A stretch of 63,994 nt of DNA, counting the filler, from Folioceros fuciformis (taxonomy: Eukaryota): assembly GCA_049999805.1 (NCBI GenBank). It is 4 parts of 3 records of this genome, joined end to end, with 100 filler letters (N's around TTAATTAATTAA, not from the genome) between each part and the next. Parts side by side here need not be neighbours in the genome. Positions count along the whole stretch, not along the records: positions 54,513 to 61,815 come from JBNGIO010006226.1; 3 more parts are not named here. One strand, written 5' to 3'. Under the pieces are notes generated by a model. It ran no database searches. It was not told the DNA's origin and worked only from the letters and a program-made list of their open reading frames with translations. This document shows, one piece after another, positions 7,084 through 61,915 of this stretch. Position 1 is the stretch's first letter. The number at the start of each line of letters is the position of its first letter. The position numbers and the translations under genes are program-made.

Positions 7084-7333
7084 TCAGCGGCCCTCGGCGC
7101 TGAATTGGGGCAGTATCGTGCAGTCCGGGCCAGTCCGCACGCCGTGAAACATAGTCAGTTAAACCTGTACATACCTGGCAAAGATGTTTGTGGGGGGCCC
7201 CACTGCTTAGAGCAAGGTCGGACGTCGGTCGGCCTGGCTGTGTTAGCTGGCTCCGGAGAGTCGCGATTCTGTAGGCCTGGCCGCTTGGCGCGCGCTTCCC
7301 CGCCAGCCTGCCTCCCTCGGTCTGTGCCCTGCT

Positions 7334-8809
7334 ATGGTCTCCTCGGCCGAACTGCATTGCGCAATGCGGGTGGTACAAGATGCAGGGGACTGTCCCCTGG
7401 AGCAGGGAGCTGGGCTTGAGGTGGAGAAGGAGCAGCAGAAGCATGAGCAGCTGCAGCTGCAGCAGCAGCAGCTGAGGAGCATCACCAGCGCGGAACTCGC
7501 CGAGCATTCCACCTCGCAGGATTTGTGGGTTTCGATACAGGGTAAGGTGTACGACGTGACGGAGTGGGTGGCGAAGCACCCCGGCGGCGACTACCCTCTG
7601 CTCACGTTGGCAGGCCAGGATGTGACCGACGCATTCCTGGCTTTCCATCCCGGGACGGCTTGGAGCTACTTGCCTCAGTTTCTGGTGGGCACGCTGGTGG
7701 ATTACCGGGTGTCTCCGATCGCAGCCGAGCATCGGATGCTGGTAGGAAAGCTGAAGAGCTCCCCGCTTTTCAAAAATCCGTTACACGTCTACCGTCGGTA
7801 TGCGGCGGTCATGCTCTGCATGTTTGTGTTGGGGGTGCTGGGAGTAGTGTATTCCACCAGTGTGTGGGTGCACCTGGGCAGTGCAGTTTTGCTCGGCCTG
7901 GTGTGGCATCAGAGTGGGTTTATAGGGCATGATGCTGGGCATTGTGGAATGGTGGGGCACCCTGTGGTGGACAAGGCTGTGGGGCTTCTTGTGGGGAACA
8001 TCTTGACAGGGATCAGTATGGCATGGTGGACGCGCAACCATAATGCGCACCACTTCGCGTGCAACAGCATCGAGTATGATCCGGATTTGCAGTACATGCC
8101 CATCTTCACCCTCACTCCCAAGCTCTTCAACTCCCTCTTCTCCTACTTCTATGACAGAAGGATGATGTTTGACGGTGCCACTCGCTTGCTTGTTCGGTAC
8201 CAGCATTGGGCATTTTACCCTGTCATGGCGGTGGCACGTGTCAACCTGCACGCACAGACCTTCTTGCTCCTCCTGTCCAAGAGAAGGATCCCCAACAGGC
8301 TGCTGGAGCTTGTTTGCGTGGGGATCTTCTGGCTCTGGTTTCTCTCCCTTCTGTGCTGCCTGCCGTCCAGGGCTGAGCGCCTTGCTTTCGTTCTGGTCAG
8401 CTATGCTACCACAGGCCTTCAACACGTGCAGTTCTGTGTCAACCACTTTTCGTGCCCAATCTACCAGGCCCGTCCTGACAGCGCAACTTGGTTTGAAGCT
8501 CAGGTCAAAGGTACCCTGAACCTCATCACTCCTCCGTGGATGGACTGGTTCTATGGTGGCTTGCAGTTCCAGATAGAGCATCACCTATTCCCGAAGTTCC
8601 CTCGTCACAATCTTCGCCAGATCCACGGCATTATTAAGCCCCTTTGCGACAAGTATGGGTTGCCCTACAAGTCTGTGACATGGTGGGAGGCAAACAAGAT
8701 GATCATTAGGACTTTAAAGGCTGCAGCTATTGAGGCATCGGATCTTCAGAAGCCGTCTCCAGCTCTGTCCAAAACCCCTTTGTGGGAAGCACTCAATGCA
8801 CATGGTTAA
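7334..8809 (+). CDS. SLD: Cytochrome b5-fused front-end desaturase, delta-8 sphingolipid desaturase type, intronless
   Basis: HPGG cytb5 motif, His boxes HDAGH, HNAHH and QIEHH, and a C-terminal LWEALNAHG typical of plant SLD. Confidence 0.88.
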   Translation: MVSSAELHCAMRVVQDAGDCPLEQGAGLEVEKEQQKHEQLQLQQQQLRSITSAELAEHSTSQDLWVSIQGKVYDVTEWVAKHPGGDYPLLTLAGQDVTDAFLAFHPGTAWSYLPQFLVGTLVDYRVSPIAAEHRMLVGKLKSSPLFKNPLHVYRRYAAVMLCMFVLGVLGVVYSTSVWVHLGSAVLLGLVWHQSGFIGHDAGHCGMVGHPVVDKAVGLLVGNILTGISMAWWTRNHNAHHFACNSIEYDPDLQYMPIFTLTPKLFNSLFSYFYDRRMMFDGATRLLVRYQHWAFYPVMAVARVNLHAQTFLLLLSKRRIPNRLLELVCVGIFWLWFLSLLCCLPSRAERLAFVLVSYATTGLQHVQFCVNHFSCPIYQARPDSATWFEAQVKGTLNLITPPWMDWFYGGLQFQIEHHLFPKFPRHNLRQIHGIIKPLCDKYGLPYKSVTWWEANKMIIRTLKAAAIEASDLQKPSPALSKTPLWEALNAHG

Positions 8810-38864: not shown

Positions 38865-40889
38865 TTAGTCGCAGGCAGACAGTGGGTTAGTTGCTTGGAT
38901 TAGCCAAGCCAAATCGTCGCCTGAGAGGTGGGGAGACAGGGCCTTGCGACAGTCGAAGTGATACTTGTCAATCCAGCCGATCTCTTCTGGAGTGAGCAGG
39001 GAAACATCCATCAACTTCTGTTGGTAGGGTACCCATGTAATATGCTCAAATTCCAGGTAGCCTTTCTCCCCGAAGTTGTGTTTCACCTCTGCTTCTTTTA
39101 TGATCAAAACATTCTCTATCCTTATCCCGAAGTTGCCATCCTCGTAATAGCCAGGCTCGTCGGTGACTGTCATGTTGGCTTGCAACGAAACGTTCCGGGC
39201 CTGCGGCCTGAAGCTGATCAGGTGGGGTCCCTCGTGCACATTGAGGTAAGAACCCACACCATGCCCTGTGCCATGGCGGTAGTCGAGCCCATCCTTCCAG
39301 AGAGGGAGTCTTGCGAGGATATCTAAGGCATGACCAGTGGTGCCATTGGGGAAGACAGCCGTGTCCAAGCCTATGTGTGCCTTGAGGACCCGTGTGTAGC
39401 AAGCCTTCTCATGGGCCGACGGCTTCCCGAAATGCATGGTGCGCGTGATGTCGGTGGTGCCATCCAGGTACTGCCCACCCGAGTCGCACAGATACATAGA
39501 GTCAGGCTGCATCTCCGCGCAAGAGTCCGGCACAGCAGAATAGTGGATTACAGCCGCATTGGCCCCCACGGCGGAAATGGTGTCGAAGCTGAGGCCCTTG
39601 AAAAGCTCCCGCTTGGAGCGAAATTCCTCCAACTTGTCGCTCACACTAATCTCGGTCATCTTCTCCTTATCCGAGCGCTTGCGCTTCAGAGAGCCCTTGC
39701 CATCGTTGCCCTCGGAGAAGTAGCCCGCTGCCCCATACACCTCCTGCATCTGCCGGTCCAGCCACGCGGTGTGACACACGACGGCTGCCCCGTCCCGGAT
39801 GTGTGAATTACGCATGCCCTGCAGCTCCACGGGATGCTTTAGCGCCTTGGCCAGGGCCAAAGGGGACTGCTGCAGCAGCACCCTGTCCTGCGGCAACCTG
39901 GTGTAGAGCGCGTAGCTGCAAGAGGCAGGGTCAAGCCACACCAACTTGGGAGCATCGCTTGAGCCGTGGTCGTCCTCCTCCTCCACCTCTTCCTCCGATC
40001 CTTCCGCGGAGGGCTCGGGCTCAGGATCGGCAGCTGCAGCGCAGACCCTGCCCAGCTCCTCCACATCCGGCAGCATCCGGTCGTAGTCCCGGATCTCCAC
40101 TCCGTTCTCCCGCAAGTAATGCTCCACCACCTCGTCGATCTTGCGCCGGTCCACGTAGTAAAAGGCAGAATGCGCGGTGACGATAGCGAAGGCGTGCACC
40201 ACGGGGTTGTAGAGCACGTCAGAGCCCCGCAGATTATAGAGCCAGGCCACCTCGTCCAGTGTGGTGACGAGGATGGCGTACGCCCTCTCCTTGGCCAGAG
40301 CCTGGCGCAGGTCGTGCAGCTTGTCCCTGGCGAGCCTGCCGGCGAAAGCCACGGCGTGTGTATGGACGGGAGCCAGCGCGGGCCTCGGCCGCGTCTTCCA
40401 CACCTGATCCACAAGATTATGCTGCAGAGGCACCAGCTTTAGGCCGCTCCGCGCGAAGGCGTGCTCCCAGCGCTTGGCGGAATCCACCGAAACGCACCAG
40501 GGGTCCACCCCGACGGCGGCCCCGCGCGACAGGTGATCCGCCAGCCAAGTCTCCAGCGGTGGCTCCTCCCCGCCTCGCATCAACTGCCATGCGCTGCTCA
40601 GCTGCTGCTGTGCTTGCAGGAAGTAGCGGCCATCGGTCCACAGCAGCGCCTTGCTACCCGTGATCACGGCCACACCAGCGCTGCCGCTGAAGCCGCTCAC
40701 GTACTCCCGCCGCTTGTCTGAGTCCGCCACGTACTCGCTTTGGTGCGCGTCCTCCGACGGCACCACCAGCGCCTCCAGCGCCGGTGTGTGGGCCTGCATC
40801 AGCGGCCGCAGCAGCCCCACTGCCTCTACCTCTACCTCTCCGTTTCCCTCTGCCTCGTCCCGCTCTTCCTTCCCCTCCGACTCCTCCAT
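38865..40889 (-). CDS. APP1: Aminopeptidase P1 (Xaa-Pro aminopeptidase, M24B), intronless
   Basis: VPSEDAHQSEY, LWTDGRYFLQA, DSGGQYLDGTTDITRT, HGTGHGVGSYLNVHEGP and EPGYYEDGNFGIRIEN. First ATG is at 40889; the ORF track uses an upstream GTG. Confidence 0.94.
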   Translation of the reverse strand: MEESEGKEERDEAEGNGEVEVEAVGLLRPLMQAHTPALEALVVPSEDAHQSEYVADSDKRREYVSGFSGSAGVAVITGSKALLWTDGRYFLQAQQQLSSAWQLMRGGEEPPLETWLADHLSRGAAVGVDPWCVSVDSAKRWEHAFARSGLKLVPLQHNLVDQVWKTRPRPALAPVHTHAVAFAGRLARDKLHDLRQALAKERAYAILVTTLDEVAWLYNLRGSDVLYNPVVHAFAIVTAHSAFYYVDRRKIDEVVEHYLRENGVEIRDYDRMLPDVEELGRVCAAAADPEPEPSAEGSEEEVEEEDDHGSSDAPKLVWLDPASCSYALYTRLPQDRVLLQQSPLALAKALKHPVELQGMRNSHIRDGAAVVCHTAWLDRQMQEVYGAAGYFSEGNDGKGSLKRKRSDKEKMTEISVSDKLEEFRSKRELFKGLSFDTISAVGANAAVIHYSAVPDSCAEMQPDSMYLCDSGGQYLDGTTDITRTMHFGKPSAHEKACYTRVLKAHIGLDTAVFPNGTTGHALDILARLPLWKDGLDYRHGTGHGVGSYLNVHEGPHLISFRPQARNVSLQANMTVTDEPGYYEDGNFGIRIENVLIIKEAEVKHNFGEKGYLEFEHITWVPYQQKLMDVSLLTPEEIGWIDKYHFDCRKALSPHLSGDDLAWLIQATNPLSACD

Positions 40890-41266
40890 GATGCGCAGCC
40901 GCTGCGCCAACTCTGCTTCCACCTCCTCCGCCACTTTGCCAGGCCTCGCACTTCAAACGAAAAAGGCAATTCTTGCCACAACCTCCTAGCACCCGAGCGA
41001 TAGACGAGGCCGAGGGCTCGCAGCGCCGCAACTCTCCACAAGAGGGCCCATCCAAGGCTAGACTACGTCTACAGACAGGAATATACGTCTAGGAAAAAGA
41101 GGGTAGATAGGTCCTCAAATTTTTAGTAAAAAGTTCCGTGGAGATAAACAGGTACGTTTTCCACAGCCAGTGAACGAATCCGCGTCATGAGCAAGCATTC
41201 AAGGACACTACTACCCATGAACCCATACCGATGACCTGAATACATAGACTATACGTTCCGTGAAAA

Positions 41267-54412: not shown

Positions 54413-54512
54413 NNNNNNNNNNNNNNNNNNNNNNNNNNNNNNNNNNNNNNNNNNNNTTAATTAATTAANNNNNNNNNNNNNNNNNNNNNNNNNNNNNNNN
54501 NNNNNNNNNNNN
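54413..54512. other. Artificial contig-join spacer
   Basis: TTAATTAATTAA at 54457-54468 within Ns. Confidence 0.9.
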
Positions 54513-57265
54513 GTGATTCGTGCGAGCTCAGCAGCCAACGAAACGCCTTCACCGTTGCCTCTGCCTGCTGTCGAAAATGTCTTGCATTCCCATCCCGCGA
54601 TCAGCATATCCACTGGGCTTGACAAGGCTTGTAGCTGCCGCTTCCCAACCAGGTTCACGTCTGTGGGCAGCCTGCTCTGACAGCCTCGAACTGCTTCCTC
54701 GCTCAGTAGTGTTGGATACTGTTTGCAGAACCTGAGGATTCGACCCCTAGCAACAACTCGAATCTTCTCATCCTTCTCCACGCAGGTATATTGCCGTATC
54801 TTGACGCCACACTGCAACACCGCTTCCAGGCCACTGTTGATTCCCGAGCAGAGCTCCAACAAATGGATGCCTTGAGCGCCCACCTTCCATCGTACTAGAG
54901 CATCGTCGATGCGTCGATCTCCCGACTTGGCAGGCCCCATACCTGGGATCGACCTCTCAGGACATGTGTCTGTGAGATTCCACGGTCGATCCTCCTTCCT
55001 TCGCTGGTTCTCTCGAACCCTCGCTTGATCCAAATATTCTGAGCGCACCACCTTAAGCACACCCTTCTGCTCTCTTGGCTTTGGCATCTCCAGAGAGGAT
55101 AACTCCTGCGTTTCCTCCCACATCTCATGTCGATGTTCACTCTGAGCACTGTGGGCAATCATGGTGCTGCCTGTCATCCTCGTCCTGCTCTTGCCACCAC
55201 TCCTATTCATCCTTAGAGGAATTCGTGCAACATGCGTGAAATCTCCTCTCCACCAGAATGGTCTGTAGAAAGCTTCAGCGTGCAAGGGATCAACCCCCAT
55301 GGCAGGACGGTGAGTTCCGTCCGACCCCAGCAAGACATCATATGTCTTCGCACTGGTGACCAAACATCTCACTTCAACGATGCTGGCATCCTTCGTGCCA
55401 GGCTTCAATTCAATCTTCACGGGCCTCCTCGTCATTCCCAGTACCTGTTCCTTGGTACCTGCAGAGGTGGTGATGTTCACGTCGCTCGGAACGAGCTTGT
55501 GTCCGTACAGGTTTAGTGCCTCCTGCACCCGTGCTCCCAGCAGTACCGGATCCGCTCCTGTGTCTACAAGTACGTTTACTGGAGCATAGCCATCAAAGGT
55601 CACGTGCCGTCCCGTGTTATCAATCATGGCAACACCTCCTCCACCTCGCGCCTCTGGCATCAGATGCTCGCCACACAAACTGGCCATACTAGGGAGAGAT
55701 CCTGCGGATTCAAGCTCCTTTCTCAGCCATTCTCGCATGATGTTTTTGAAGTTGTTGCCTTTCACTCCCAGATCCACAAGACTTACTGCAGGCACCTCCA
55801 TGGCCTTGTCCAGCAACGCCTCAACGTCTCTACCTGATCTTGACACCTTCTGTGTCGTGGAGTTTCCCTCGACCTGCCGGAAACTCTCCGGCATCTTGGT
55901 CGATTCCCGTTCCGGCACTCCCTTCGCAGTGACGCCTTCACCAAAGTTAGCAACAGCCTTTTTCTTTTTCTTGCGCACCGCCATCATGCCAAATGCCTCA
56001 TCATCATCAGAGTCAGAGAACAAAATCCTCTGCTCTATTCTGCTGGCCATGTTGGCCATCTCCTTCTTGAGCTCCTCCACTTGCCCAAGGAGAGCCTTAC
56101 GACTCGGGCCCTTGCCCTTCTCGTTCTCAGCTGATGCAAGCTTGGGCTTCAGCTCTGGATAAGCTTCCCAACACGCTGCCTCCATGTGACCCCATCTGCC
56201 ACAAGACTTACAGGCTTCCTTGCCCTTCGGACCACCTGGCTTGTAGTCGCATTCGAACGCCTTGTGCGCTCCACAGCATCTGCCACACTTCACAGCTGCT
56301 TGACCTGCATTGTTAGCTGGCCTCTCCTTCGGCGCATGTGGCTGCTTGCCATGTCCTGAGGATTGTGCTTGCTCCCGGTACTGGTACCTTGGAACAAACC
56401 TGGAATTCCCGTGTCCTCCAGACCCGTGCTGCGAGGAGCCCTTCACGACTCCGTGATTTTCCAAGTAAGCCTGGCTTACTGCATCTCCTTTGAGCACCTT
56501 CTCAGCAATTTGGTAGGCGTCTATCAACTGATACCTTTCTCCCATCGCTCCATGCAGCGAGTCCATTACCTTCCTTCTTTGTCTGGCAGGCAATGCTGCC
56601 ATGAAGATCTCGGCAGCCTCCCTCATCGTCTTCACTCCCGTGTCTTCCACCAGAACCTTCAGTCTGAGGTAAGATGCACGCAATGTCTCGTTAGGCCTGA
56701 AAGAAAACCTCGACAGTTCCTGGATCTTTTCCAGCGAAGCTGTAGGAAACATGGTGGTTAACTTGGCGAACATCAAGTCCACCAGATGCTCGAGCTTGTC
56801 CTCGTCAGTAGGGGGTGCAGTCGAACCAGCCCTCTTGGCCGCCTCGTGCACTGCTTCTCTTCTCTCGGCCACCTTCAGGATCCCAGCCTTCTCATCTCTG
56901 TAATACATTAGAGCCTCACCCGCAAGGTAGGATGACATCTTCATGAACGCCATCCTCTGAGTGAACTCGTCCTTGTATTTCATCTTGTTTTCCGCCATTG
57001 CCCAACGAAACTTCTCCTCGAAATCTGCAAGAGACATGCTTCCATGTTTTCCTGTGAAGACATCGTTCTTACTTGGTGTGAACTCAAGCTCCATTCTTGC
57101 AGACTCTCTGCTCCAATCGCCAAACTGTCTCCTTGTGACTGGCGCGTTGTCTCTGTATTGTTCCGGTGTCCTCTTGAATGGCGAGTAGTAGCCGTCGTGC
57201 ACTTCTCCGACTGAAGACGGCGCAGGTGTCCTTTCGTCAGTCCACCCTGATCTCAAGAACACCAT
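54513..57265 (-). CDS. Retroelement polyprotein, N-terminal part: gag, two CCHC knuckles, aspartic protease, start of the DNMT domain (truncated by gap)
   Basis: YLAGEALMYY gag-like segment, CGRCCGAHKAFEC and CKSCGRWGHMEAAC, VLVDTGA...DVLLG, and LLELCSG...AGWEC. Confidence 0.88.
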
Positions 57266-57489
57266 CAATGGTTACTTCTCCTATGCCTGACCACTGCACG
57301 GATGTTGTCAAAGGGCAAATTGTTTCCACCGTTAGCCCAATCAGCTAGCCAGAAAAGTACATCCACTGCCTCTATCCACAAACGACTCCAGACGTATGCA
57401 GGCTCTTCTCCCGACAGCTCTGCTAACTCAGCAATCGTGAGACTACCACACCTAAGCCGTGTATAATCAATGGCAGAATTCTTGTCCAT
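57265..57489 (-). CDS. 74-aa upstream ORF whose stop overlaps the polyprotein start (TGATG)
   Basis: ATG at 57489 and TGA at 57267-57265 sharing its A with the ATG at 57265-57263. Confidence 0.5.
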   Translation of the reverse strand: MDKNSAIDYTRLRCGSLTIAELAELSGEEPAYVWSRLWIEAVDVLFWLADWANGGNNLPFDNIRAVVRHRRSNH

Positions 57490-57654
57490 CAGAAAAACAT
57501 CAGCCTATCTCTTAGTGCTGCCTCTGCAACACCCAACCTTCTTGGATCGCAGCTGTCTCTTGGGTTGGATGGTGGACGATTTCCGCCTCTTCATCCAATC
57601 TCCAGCGCGCCACATTCTCCTCCAGTACCGTATCTTAGTCCCCAACAAGCGGAT

Positions 57655-58496
57655 TGTTGATGTGGTGAAATCAAGCTGGAAAATTCTCCCAACCTGGCAA
57701 TGCAACGAACCACAAGAACCTCTAGGAGACAAAGACACAGCAGGGACGAAGTATGGCTGTCTATTGGAACAAGACAAACATCAACAATCCGAGAATCCAT
57801 GGCTGGGTGCCTACATATATAGGCAAAAACCCCCAGGAGTTCTCGATGAAGTGTCCACCCGTATCGATGGTGGGCACTTTATAATCCTACTTTCCTTGAT
57901 TTATGATTTTTATGTATTTTCTAATATCTTCTAATATAAATCTGCTATCTATATATGTGGCATAGCACCGCGCCTTTCATGCACAACCATGCATATAGGT
58001 TGCATGCGCCATGACACATCACCTGCCACATGTCCACATACATCACATGTCATCCTTCATCTCCATATGCATGCATACATGGCACACATGCATATATGGC
58101 ATACATGTCATGTGCAGGCCATCCATGGGCCATGTACATGACATCATCAAGCACTTCAGCATCAGGGCTTATGCCCGAGATGCTCCAGTCAGTATCTAGT
58201 CATTTCAGCATTCAGGGCTTATGCCCAGGATGCTCTAGTCAGTATCCAGTCATAGAGTCTTAGGTGCTCTGTTTCCCATACAGCAACAGCTGTCGCGCAG
58301 CAGCCGCATAGCTGCATGCCTACCTAGCCTGTCTACCAAGCTAGGTCACTAAGCTTCCGCCTGCCTACGATCTCCTTGGCCTTCGGCCTAGGAGCAACAA
58401 TCCTAGCCTTAATTTGTCCTTGGCCTATGGCCAAGAGCAAGGCTACAAAAAGAGACTAGGTTTGCCTAAGAGAGGCAGACCCGGGACCCGTCAACA
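57655..58496 (-). repeat. Long terminal repeat (about 840 bp) of the DNMT-carrying element
   Basis: Starts TGTTGA immediately after the purine-rich AGGGGGGC (PPT, 58504-58497). TATATAT at 57821. Ends at ...CCACA (57661) or ...TCAACA (57655). Confidence 0.75.
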
Positions 58497-58582
58497 GCCC
58501 CCCTGGGAAACTTGGAGGCCTAGCCACCTGGTTTCCCACAAAATTGTTTAGACCAACTTGGCCTAGGAAAACAAACAACTAC

Positions 58583-61500
58583 TTACCAACGTCCCCACCA
58601 GCGAGAACGTAGCTTGTCCAACACTGACGGTGGTTCTGACCGAGGAGGAGGAATGGCGTCATCTTCTAGATCCTCATCATCTGATGGGTCTTCTTGTGCC
58701 TCCTGTGTAATCGTAATCTCACTGGGCAGCTTGAATCCAGAGAGACTGTCAACTGCTGTTTCAGCTTCCAACGTGTGTGAATTTAAGACAACCTCAGTAT
58801 CACCTTCTGTAAGAGCCACGTTCACACTTAGCACATTACAGTGCTCACATAGCCATTCTTCTTCTGGAACACTGTCCAGTGCCGGTTTGAGGCAAAACAG
58901 ATGGTAACCACGGTTACACCTGTCACATAGCAACATGAATTCGTCGTCAGTTGTGTGTCCACACTCCTCACAGGGCAAATCTGCTGGTGGCGTCCAGGTC
59001 TGAGGCACAGTTCGTGTATCCAGATCAGGCAAATGGCATGGAGCCAAGTGCTTCATGTGTTCCTTGCACCTTCTGCCATCTCTTCCTTCAAGTTCAACCA
59101 CACCTTGCTCACCAACCTGGACAACTCGCAGGATAAGCCTTCCTGTGCTGACATCTAACGTGCTTGCAGGCCTGCGCTGCAAGTACACGTAATCTCCAGA
59201 TGCAAACTTGCGGCCTTTGGGCTTCCACGAGCCCTCCCGCGTATAAGCATACCTCAGCTGGTCCCGATGCTGGGCCACAGCCAAATTATCCATAGCCATG
59301 GGAAGAATTCTTTGAAATACTTCTGCTCTGGCTTGAACCTGTGCCAAGCACACATTTGCATCTTTGCTCCAGTCAACAGGGATGGAGTAGGTGTCCTTCA
59401 CCACATTCGGCAACACTGCGTTGCGTCCGAATAACAAAAAGTATGGACTGAAACTTCCAAGAGCTGCCATGCTGAATCTCTCCCGCAGCAGCTCGTCTTC
59501 CTCTGCCTTAGGAACCTCTTTATCCTGCAGTAGTTGGAGGAAAGGCCTTCGCTTCCCTTCGGCTTCTGCAAGTTGGAACGCCAAGCCTGTGCTTACCAGC
59601 CACCTTAGACTGTACAAGTCAAATGCCTGTCCGAGCATCCTGCACCTTGCAGATTCTGTGATGCCCATGGTCTGAGTGTCCTTCTTGGCAAAGCCCATCG
59701 CTTGCTCGCGTTCCTCAACATTGAGCTCTCCAAGCTCATTCCCTTTCAAATCCAGAATCACACCATCTCCTCCTGGTCTGAAGGCATAAGATTGCGGTGT
59801 GCTCACCAGAGTTGGCCATGCCCTTCTGGATTCCCCTACTCGATTCACAGGGTAAAATGGCAACTTGTCCATCCTCTTCACCTGTTGTGAGCACCTTCCC
59901 AACTCTAGGATATCATCCACAACCTTCCGCTTCGGAGTTGTCAAATTCCTGTGATGTCTGAGCACCTCCAGTCCAGCCACATTTGTCCAGTAACTGCGAA
60001 GCCTGTGTGCATATGAGCCACACTGCACCGCGTCCATGATCAGCTCATTGCCGAACCACGCCCGAATCTCTTCATACAGGGCCCTAACAGCTGGACGTTT
60101 GTCCATGGCTGCACACACATTCTCCAGAATGTACCAACATCGTGGATTCGCAATCTGGACTTCTCGCGTGATTCGTGCGAGCTCAGCAGCCAACGAAACG
60201 CCTTCACCGTTGCCTCTGCCTGCTGTCGAAAATGTCTTGCATTCCCATCCCGCGATCAGCATATCCACTGGGCTTGACAAGGCTTGTAGCTGCCGCTTCC
60301 CAACCAGGTTCACGTCTGTGGGCAGCCTGCTCTGACAGCCTCGAACTGCTTCCTCGCTCAGTAGTGTTGGATACTGTTTGCAGAACCTGAGGATTCGACC
60401 CCTAGCAACAACTCGAATCTTCTCATCCTTCTCCACGCAGGTATATTGCCGTATCTTGACGCCACACTGCAACACCGCTTCCAGGCCACTGTTGATTCCC
60501 GAGCAGAGCTCCAACAAATGGATGCCTTGAGCGCCCACCTTCCATCGTACTAGAGCATCGTCGATGCGTCGATCTCCCGACTTGGCAGGCCCCATACCTG
60601 GGATCGACCTCTCAGGACATGTGTCTGTGAGATTCCACGGTCGATCCTCCTTCCTTCGCTGGTTCTCTCGAACCCTCGCTTGATCCAAATATTCTGAGCG
60701 CACCACCTTAAGCACACCCTTCTGCTCTCTTGGCTTTGGCATCTCCAGAGAGGATAACTCCTGCGTTTCCTCCCACATCTCATGTCGATGTTCACTCTGA
60801 GCACTGTGGGCAATCATGGTGCTGCCTGTCATCCTCGTCCTGCTCTTGCCACCACTCCTATTCATCCTTAGAGGAATTCGTGCAACATGCGTGAAATCTC
60901 CTCTCCACCAGAATGGTCTGTAGAAAGCTTCAGCGTGCAAGGGATCAACCCCCATGGCAGGACGGTGAGTTCCGTCCGACCCCAGCAAGACATCATATGT
61001 CTTCGCACTGGTGACCAAACATCTCACTTCAACGATGCTGGCATCCTTCGTGCCAGGCTTCAATTCAATCTTCACGGGCCTCCTCGTCATTCCCAGTACC
61101 TGTTCCTTGGTACCTGCAGAGGTGGTGATGTTCACGTCGCTCGGAACGAGCTTGTGTCCGTACAGGTTTAGTGCCTCCTGCACCCGTGCTCCCAGCAGTA
61201 CCGGATCCGCTCCTGTGTCTACAAGTACGTTTACTGGAGCATAGCCATCAAAGGTCACGTGCCGTCCCGTGTTATCAATCATGGCAACACCTCCTCCACC
61301 TCGCGCCTCTGGCATCAGATGCTCGCCACACAAACTGGCCATACTAGGGAGAGATCCTGCGGATTCAAGCTCCTTTCTCAGCCATTCTCGCATGATGTTT
61401 TTGAAGTTGTTGCCTTTCACTCCCAGATCCACAAGACTTACTGCAGGCACCTCCATGGCCTTGTCCAGCAACGCCTCAACGTCTCTACCTGATCTTGACA

Positions 61501-61815
61501 CCTTCTGTGTCGTGGAGTTTCCCTCGACCTGCCGGAAACTCTCCGGCATCTTGGTCGATTCCCGTTCCGGCACTCCCTTCGCAGTGACGCCTTCACCAAA
61601 GTTAGCAACAGCCTTTTTCTTTTTCTTGCGCACCGCCATCATGCCAAATGCCTCATCATCATCAGAGTCAGAGAACAAAATCCTCTGCTCTATTCTGCTG
61701 GCCATGTTGGCCATCTCCTTCTTGAGCTCCTCCACTTGCCCAAGGAGAGCCTTACGACTCGGGCCCTTGCCCTTCTCGTTCTCAGCTGATGCAAGCTTGG
61801 GCTTCAGCTCTGGAT
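58583..61815 (-). CDS. Retroelement polyprotein, C-terminal part: protease, DNMT3-like C5 methyltransferase, integrase C-terminal remnant, PHD finger
   Basis: DTGA (61219), LELCSG, AGWECK, ILENV, AHRLRSYWTN, EREQAMGF and MLGQAFD. FSPYFLLFGR...AQHRDQ...FASGDYVYL. CEECG...LLCDRCNRGYHLFCL...WLCEHC. Confidence 0.92.
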
Positions 61816-61915
61816 NNNNNNNNNNNNNNNNNNNNNNNNNNNNNNNNNNNNNNNNNNNNTTAATTAATTAANNNNNNNNNNNNNNNNNNNNNNNNNNNNN
61901 NNNNNNNNNNNNNNN
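61816..61915. other. Artificial contig-join spacer
   Basis: TTAATTAATTAA at 61860-61871 within Ns. Confidence 0.9.

Follow-up and report, generated by a model that had tools for sequence, protein, structure and literature searches.

A minus-strand element in a 63,994-nucleotide stretch of Folioceros fuciformis DNA (filler included; referred to here as the window, along which all positions are counted) is plausibly an LTR retrotransposon that primes its own reverse transcription in the manner of Tf1, and from the sequence we lean slightly toward this reading. The element contains a perfect 14-bp inverted repeat. One arm lies 30 nt past a TATA-like box within the LTR and would form the first nucleotides of the transcript, and the other occupies the place directly behind the LTR end, where a tRNA-primed element would have its primer binding site (PBS). 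In the following, we describe the repeat and the LTR ends against which its position was judged, the coding content and relatives of the element, the predicted folding of its RNA, and the other explanations that can be given for the repeat.

A perfect inverted repeat and the ends of the LTR

On the plus strand, the two 14-mers CGGATTGTTGATGT (57650-57663) and ACATCAACAATCCG (57778-57791) are exact reverse complements of each other (14/14). A first-pass annotation of the window had reported this perfect inverted repeat, and both its coordinates and its complementarity were verified. When the whole 64-kb window was scanned for perfect inverted repeats (loop length 3-300 nt), this locus was the only one both at 14 bp and at 13 bp, and at 12 bp it was joined by one other (308/412). 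Of 200 windows simulated with a first-order Markov model, 14 (7%) contained one or more 14-bp repeats of this kind. Window-wide, the repeat is only mildly unusual, and given that 7% of simulated windows contain such a repeat, it is the position of the arms that counts, not the repeat alone.

Judging this position requires the LTR ends, which were approached with Logan contigs of four public runs (X1, X2, X3 and X4). The element is found in 54513-61815, a 7303-bp contig between two N gaps (54413-54512 and 61816-61915), each with a central TTAATTAATTAA linker. The contig ends, 54513-56160 and 60168-61815, are 1648-bp direct repeats with 100% identity, and the contig does not resolve one insertion but depicts a multi-copy element in wrap-around form, in the order internal 3' part, one terminal repeat, internal 5' part. 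In run X1, internal contigs had a depth of 355-456, as compared to 847.8 in the contig of the repeat block (57779-58127); in X2, the corresponding values were 493-657 and 1234 (block contig 57837-58127). With a block depth of about twice the internal one, there should be about two block copies per internal region, as is the case for LTRs. Because adjacent contigs overlap by 30 letters (e.g. 59027-59056 and 56653-56682), a contig representing a single context should end 30 letters into shared sequence. The internal-depth contigs on the 3' side (X1 rec5 and X2 rec13) both begin at 58468, so the shared block should start at 58497 at most, and the leader-side internal-depth contig X1 rec3 ends at 57693, so the block should end at 57664 at least. 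The contig ends thereby bound the block within 58497..57664. The 3' LTR bound comes from X1 rec3, the contigs of X4, X2 and X3 ending earlier (57683, 57628 and 57635, respectively), and contig simplification could blur the LTR ends. Among many copies, some flanks will by chance agree with the internal context over 1-3 letters, so that the true ends are expected slightly inside these bounds.

The layout that fits these data best consists of a polypurine tract (PPT)-like AGGGGGG (58498-58504, minus strand), a single C, the TG (58496) and CA (57666) of the LTR, the two letters CC, and the 14-mer (57663-57650). The LTR inferred in this way, from contig depth and contig ends together with the TG and CA read in the sequence, spans 831 bp (TGTTGACGGG...GCTTGATTTCA, 57666-58496, minus strand), and one collapsed copy stands for both LTRs in the wrap-around contig. 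A two-LTR copy with target-site duplication was not seen; the one collapsed LTR, at about twice the internal depth, fits with the PPT and TG..CA. In retroviruses, the PPT lies 1-2 letters ahead of TG, and CA lies 2 letters ahead of the PBS. The element exhibits the same spacing, with AGGGGGG-C-TG at one end and CA-CC-arm at the other. Whereas the retroviral PBS is complementary to a tRNA, the sequence at the PBS place here is complementary to the element's own predicted 5' end. The LTR end at 57661 given by the first-pass annotation does not agree with the contig ends, which put the last shared letter at 57664 at least, and the 11-mer PBS deduced from it likewise finds no support, as the whole 14-mer lies outside the LTR at the canonical PBS place. 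Of the Tf1-like, tRNA-independent priming proposed by that annotation, these two details are unsupported, whereas the placement of the arms, the PPT and the apparent lack of an adjacent tRNA-like PBS fit it.

Other LTR ends were considered. A start at TGTGG (58540), which would form an imperfect terminal inverted repeat with ...CCACA (57661), was rejected, as internal-depth contigs reach 58468 in both X1 and X2. An end at TCAACA (57655), forming a perfect 6-bp terminal repeat with TGTTGA (58496), was tentatively set aside because X1 rec3 continues to 57693; the end of X4 rec24 (57683) would fit this LTR end. Within U3, the repeat scan detected two 42-nt direct repeats that are 50 nt apart (58162-58253, minus strand) and coincide with loose contig ends at 58196, 58232 and 58248; their copy number differs among genomic copies. 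U3 (57960-58260) also holds a CATG/ATGT-rich low-complexity stretch, and an Rfam scan of 57200-58650 returned only a sub-threshold mir-297 match in low-complexity U3 (26 bits vs a cut-off of 90). Runs X3 and X4 carry an 8-nt insertion behind 58285.

With the LTR ends in place, the arms could be subjected to a placement test. When the LTR was shuffled, a 14-nt complement to any word beginning 0-5 nt past the LTR end was obtained in 0/20000 cases, and an 11-nt complement, for the same start range, in 53/20000. In the element, the sequence that begins 2 nt past the LTR end finds its 14-nt complement at LTR position 706 of 831 (= 57791), and for all other offsets past the LTR end, complement matches elsewhere do not exceed 7 nt. 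The 5' arm (57778-57791, minus strand, reading CGGATTGTTGATGT) would represent the first 14 nt of the transcript, that is the start of R, and is the proposed self-primer. The PBS-position arm (57650-57663, ACATCAACAATCCG on the minus strand), located 2 nt (CC) past the CA of the LTR, is contained in the internal-depth contigs X1 rec3 and X4 rec24, and the latter shows it to be identical in a second organism (organism B). Among the differences listed at 10% of depth or more in the four runs, none falls into either arm, the cover of the 5' arm in X4 not being displayed. One X1 contig represents an LTR variant in which the match breaks off at 57732 and 57793-like sequence follows, such that ~57733-57792 (~60 nt) are missing. 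The missing stretch opens at the predicted transcript start and takes in the 5' arm, an observation that counts against self-priming.

The predicted transcript start rests on the TATA-like box TATATAT (57815-57821, minus strand). The motif TATAWAW has 18 matches on both strands of the window, and TATATAT is the only minus-strand match within the LTR. The arm starts at 57791, 30 nt past the first T of the box (57821), which is the spacing noted in the first-pass annotation. Slightly upstream of TATATAT are a TATAAAG (57883-57877, minus strand) and other AT-rich motifs; as an alternative box, TATAAAG could place the transcript start ~60 nt further upstream. None of the listed runs is on record as RNA; run X3, which we guess to be RNA, is without cover at 57641-58164, its contigs ending at 57635 and 58269, and is uninformative on the transcript start.

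Regarding a conventional primer, no TGG is present within 20 nt past the LTR end. The nearest one is at 57644, in line with the earlier statement that no TGG directly follows the LTR. The only tRNA gene in the window, tRNA-Lys(CTT) at 2711-2785, does not fit the sequence at the PBS place. Read against the canonical tRNA numbering, neither TGGCGCGC... nor the 14-mer looks like an anticodon arm or the 3' end of a tRNA. The first-pass annotation had named an LTR end beside TGGCGCGC (57612-57605) as one arrangement that would speak against self-priming, and we considered this motif as a PBS. It is located ~50 nt from the LTR end, inside sequence of internal depth, and therefore cannot be an adjacent PBS.

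Proposed priming and coding content

From these features, we infer how transcription start, cleavage and priming may proceed. Transcription would start ~30 nt past TATATAT, at or near 57791, yielding an RNA that opens with CGGAUUGUUGAUGU. The 5' end of this RNA would fold back over 114 nt of R/U5 and pair with ACAUCAACAAUCCG (57663-57650), a site 2 nt past the terminal CA of the LTR, where tRNA-primed elements have their PBS. RNase H, provided in trans by full-length family members, would then cut the RNA duplex; since the copy in the window is without RT and RNase H, the enzymes for this mechanism would have to come in trans. The freed 5' piece of 11-14 nt could prime minus-strand strong-stop DNA synthesis through U5 and R, and plus-strand synthesis would begin at the AGGGGGG tract beside the LTR start.

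The element is encoded on the minus strand, with one frame running from an ATG at 57265 through the terminal direct repeat to a stop at 58583. According to ORF reading and Pfam, the 5' part of the main ORF (54513-57265, minus strand) comprises gag with two CCHC-like zinc knuckles, an aspartic protease (PR) and the start of a methyltransferase (DNMT) before it enters the N gap. The 3' part (58583-61813, minus strand), for which alignments were used in addition, comprises the gag C-terminus, PR, a DNMT-like domain, a C-terminal piece of the integrase, a PHD finger and the stop. A leader ORF of 74 codons (MDKNSAIDY..., 57265-57489, minus strand) precedes the main ORF, and its TGA overlaps the ATG of the latter (57265-57263) by one base (TGATG), which could reflect a split gag or a termination-reinitiation arrangement. 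Pfam identified PR, a weak C5-DNA-methylase match (19.5 bits vs a cut-off of 22) and the PHD finger (PF00628, E 1.3e-10) in the window copy, and detected no RT, RNase H or integrase core in it. The copy does not follow the polyprotein order PR-RT-RH-DNMT-IN, containing gag-PR-DNMT-PHD only, and is, judged by its domains, a non-autonomous derivative of an RT-RH-DNMT-IN-PHD family.

Contig continuations and the alignment with the related protein P0003 indicate that the window copy has a deletion junction at 59462-59468 (minus strand; 7-nt overlap), where relatives have the integrase core. At this site, contigs of X1, X2 and X3 continue in both directions into sequence that differs from the window, and those of X4 do so only behind 59468; for X1 and X2, the continuing contigs displayed are of main depth. 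The junction corresponds to residue 782-784 of P0002 and falls exactly at the integrase core of P0003. A manual translation of the 30 loose letters that follow 59468 (minus strand) carries the frame on without a stop and ends in ...GYRVSVQ, which resembles ...AYNCSTQ of P0003 just ahead of a shared FSPY/FAPF motif. The majority form in the runs thus has extra sequence at 59462-59468, which is probably the integrase core. At the end of the ORF, an X3 contig skips 182 nt (58586-58767, ends CC..TT, 7 nt shared), which has the look of a variant with a deletion and not of an intron.

Over the DNMT, and again over the integrase C-terminus and PHD finger, P0003 aligns at 34-35%, with an integrase zinc finger and core between the two aligned segments and RT-RH ahead of them. 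An exhaustive protein search returned 366 cluster representatives at E <=1e-30 (P0126-P0275 among the proteins), many of which are polyproteins of 1600-3400 aa with the order RT-RH-DNMT-IN-PHD, and the combination of DNMT with an integrase C-terminus and PHD finger is common in public data. In the long representatives that were scanned, RT, RNase H, integrase and PHD finger were present in 4/4, and a DNA_methylase Pfam match in 3/4. The domains of P0003 and of these long relatives define the family as a Ty3/gypsy type that carries both a PHD finger and a methyltransferase. No chromodomain match was obtained at the C-terminus of the window copy, P0003 or the four long relatives, the PHD finger being located there instead. 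Searches for related loci with the protein alignment A1 gave 592 pattern matches in metagenome_contigs and 46 in viral_contigs, with 0 confirmed in either set, and the 26-base LTR-end pattern had 0 matches in metagenome_contigs.

The window also contains host genes with long uninterrupted ORFs, encoding a Na/sulfate symporter (86-1855), a cytochrome-b5 fused desaturase (7247-8809) and an aminopeptidase P (38865-40952). For the aminopeptidase P ORF, bryophyte and lycophyte proteins are among the best named matches (63-68% identity), with a maximum of 68% to the listed plant proteins. These matches indicate a host of the green-plant lineage.

Predicted RNA folding and competing explanations

Taken by themselves, the two arms have a duplex energy of -20.6 kcal/mol. 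The predicted fold of 57791-57640 has an MFE of -44.2 kcal/mol and is closed by the 14-bp stem with a mean pair probability of 0.98; compared to shuffled sequences, its z is -1.88, and 8/200 shuffles fold as well. In 12/16 RNA constructs, namely those extended to 57600 or beyond, R/U5 takes the leader as its partner, which leaves the arms with a pairing probability of 0.00. For 57791-57600, the free fold reaches an MFE of -63.5 kcal/mol, as compared to -51.1 with the 14-bp duplex forced, and has a z of -2.02, with 7/200 shuffles folding as well. The competing structure joins R/U5 (57763-57709) to the leader (57666-57603) by an imperfect long-range pairing, predicted to consist of helices of 11, 6, 6 and 6 bp (57603-57763, minus strand). 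Its main helices leave the arms unused, and could coexist with the paired arms only as a pseudoknot, which the folding program cannot model. According to these predictions, the self-primer duplex is not favored on thermodynamic grounds alone. Both competing folds include a predicted 10-bp hairpin with 3 G-U pairs in U5, 8 nt ahead of the PBS arm (57672-57696, minus strand), which we take to be possibly analogous to the retroviral U5-IR stem-loop. A U5 hairpin and a U5-leader pairing are thus predicted here just as retroviruses have U5-IR and U5-leader stems.

In retroviruses, U5-leader stems present the primer site, and the 14-bp repeat could likewise be a stem that closes R/U5 and presents a non-canonical PBS to a host RNA, be it a tRNA, a tRNA half or a small RNA. 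The second long-range U5-leader pairing predicted above would suit such an arrangement, and plant copia elements are known to use half-tRNA primers that do not start with TGG (PMC6317226). We nevertheless consider priming by a host RNA unlikely, as the PBS position, 2 nt past CA, is filled by the arm itself, no TGG is found within 20 nt, and the tRNA-Lys of the window does not match. Moreover, going by the tRNA numbering, TGGCGCGC and the 14-mer do not look like a tRNA 3' end or anticodon arm. The repeat may also be functional for reasons other than priming. A stem as stable as -20.6 kcal/mol could act as a leader hairpin in packaging, dimerisation, translational control of the leader ORF or transcript stability, given that retroelement leaders are rich in structured signals and that this leader has a 74-codon ORF. 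Such a role would leave unexplained why the arms are positioned as they are, one beginning exactly where a PBS is expected and its partner 30 nt past the TATA box, and the element would still need a primer site, of which none is seen, so that we regard a purely structural role as improbable, too.

Far less credible is a DIRS-like replication, in which split direct repeats (A-coding-B-A-B), as in KnitGypsy-Dnmt3, would employ the inverted repeat for junction templating, not for priming. The Dnmt3-carrying Gypsy element of Klebsormidium is drawn with DIRS-type repeats in its description (Fig. 4c legend, PMC5890265), the wrap-around contig is compatible with both layouts, and loose ends with heterogeneous continuations are seen at 58291 and 58164. 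However, the relatives have a DDE (rve) integrase and no tyrosine recombinase, Pfam found no recombinase domain in the window copy, and the order PPT-TG...CA-PBS is an LTR layout. Furthermore, no A-to-B joint is among the listed contig joints, though such a joint might escape listing. We attach equally little weight to the notion that the repeat arose by chance or constitutes the inverted ends of a nested 142-bp MITE. A 14-bp repeat somewhere in the window did turn up in 7% of the simulations, but the placement test yielded 0/20000. As to the MITE, the depth at 57707 (1014 in X1, 1181 in X2) equals the LTR level and reveals no excess copies, the arms are without flanking target-site duplication, and the ends of the X1 deletion variant (57732/57793) differ from the ends of the arms. 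With neither excess depth nor a target-site duplication, the MITE reading was discarded.

Relation to known self-priming elements

The proposed self-priming by the RNA 5' end can be compared with systems described in the literature. In Tf1, the RNA's first 11 bases anneal to the PBS, with RNase H cleavage falling between bases 11 and 12 (PMC7175516); Tj1 has been proposed to self-prime as Tf1 does (PMC4600332). Tf1 and Tf2 of Schizosaccharomyces pombe and Tj1 of S. japonicus likewise have a complement of the predicted RNA 5' end adjacent to the LTR; a tRNA PBS is absent in them, as it seems to be here, and a U5 hairpin is predicted beside their PBS, as it is here (PMC7175516, PMC4600332). The duplex comprises 11 bp in Tf1, as against the 14 bp predicted here. 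Whereas elements of the Tf1/sushi-Tcn1 clade usually have a chromodomain at the C-terminus, the family described here carries a PHD finger and a DNMT, and the window copy lacks RT, RNase H and integrase core.

The mechanism is already known, and a sequence-based prediction such as ours is of a sort that is routinely made: in a plant survey, prediction assigned self-priming to 12% of LTR elements (PMC6317226), mainly of the Tcn1 clade (mosses, club-mosses/lycophytes) and the TAR copia lineage (PMC6317226, Neumann et al. 2019). This survey predicts self-priming for none of the other plant chromovirus clades and places Chlamyvir alone in algae (PMC6317226). An earlier survey reported Tcn1-like elements in no alga (PMC2864245). 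Elements of the Tcn1 clade and TAR resemble the present one in that their hosts are green plants and the prediction derives from LTR-PBS complementarity (PMC6317226), and differ from it in that the family here carries a DNMT and a PHD finger. A further counterpart is KnitGypsy-Dnmt3 of Klebsormidium nitens, a Gypsy-type element with a cytosine methyltransferase in its polyprotein (PMC5890265, de Mendoza et al. 2018). Compared by description only, it shares with our element the Gypsy type, the DNMT in the polyprotein and a streptophyte host, whereas it is drawn with DIRS-like repeats (PMC5890265) and the window copy is a deletion derivative. The term 'primer binding' does not occur in the text of PMC5890265, and our literature search found no paper describing self-priming in algae or the primer binding sites of Klebsormidium.

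Beyond the single element, it is conceivable, if rather doubtful, that a large and as yet little-described DNMT- and PHD-containing Ty3/gypsy family of streptophyte algae uses the initial 14 nt of its RNA as primer. Self-priming serves as a clade marker for Tf1/sushi-Tcn1 elements and is used in arguments on horizontal transfer. If the reading for the family were true, Tf1-type self-priming would extend beyond the Tf1/sushi-Tcn1 chromoviruses, and to algae, and the high-copy gag-PR-DNMT-PHD deletion derivatives could be copied in trans without a host tRNA. Self-priming releases a retroelement from its dependence on host tRNA primers, and a well-supported case in a streptophyte DNMT-Gypsy family would imply either a wider origin or spread of the mechanism or a relationship of the family with the Tf1/sushi-Tcn1 clade. 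The two arms would then offer a simple handle on the mobility of methyltransferase-bearing retrotransposons.
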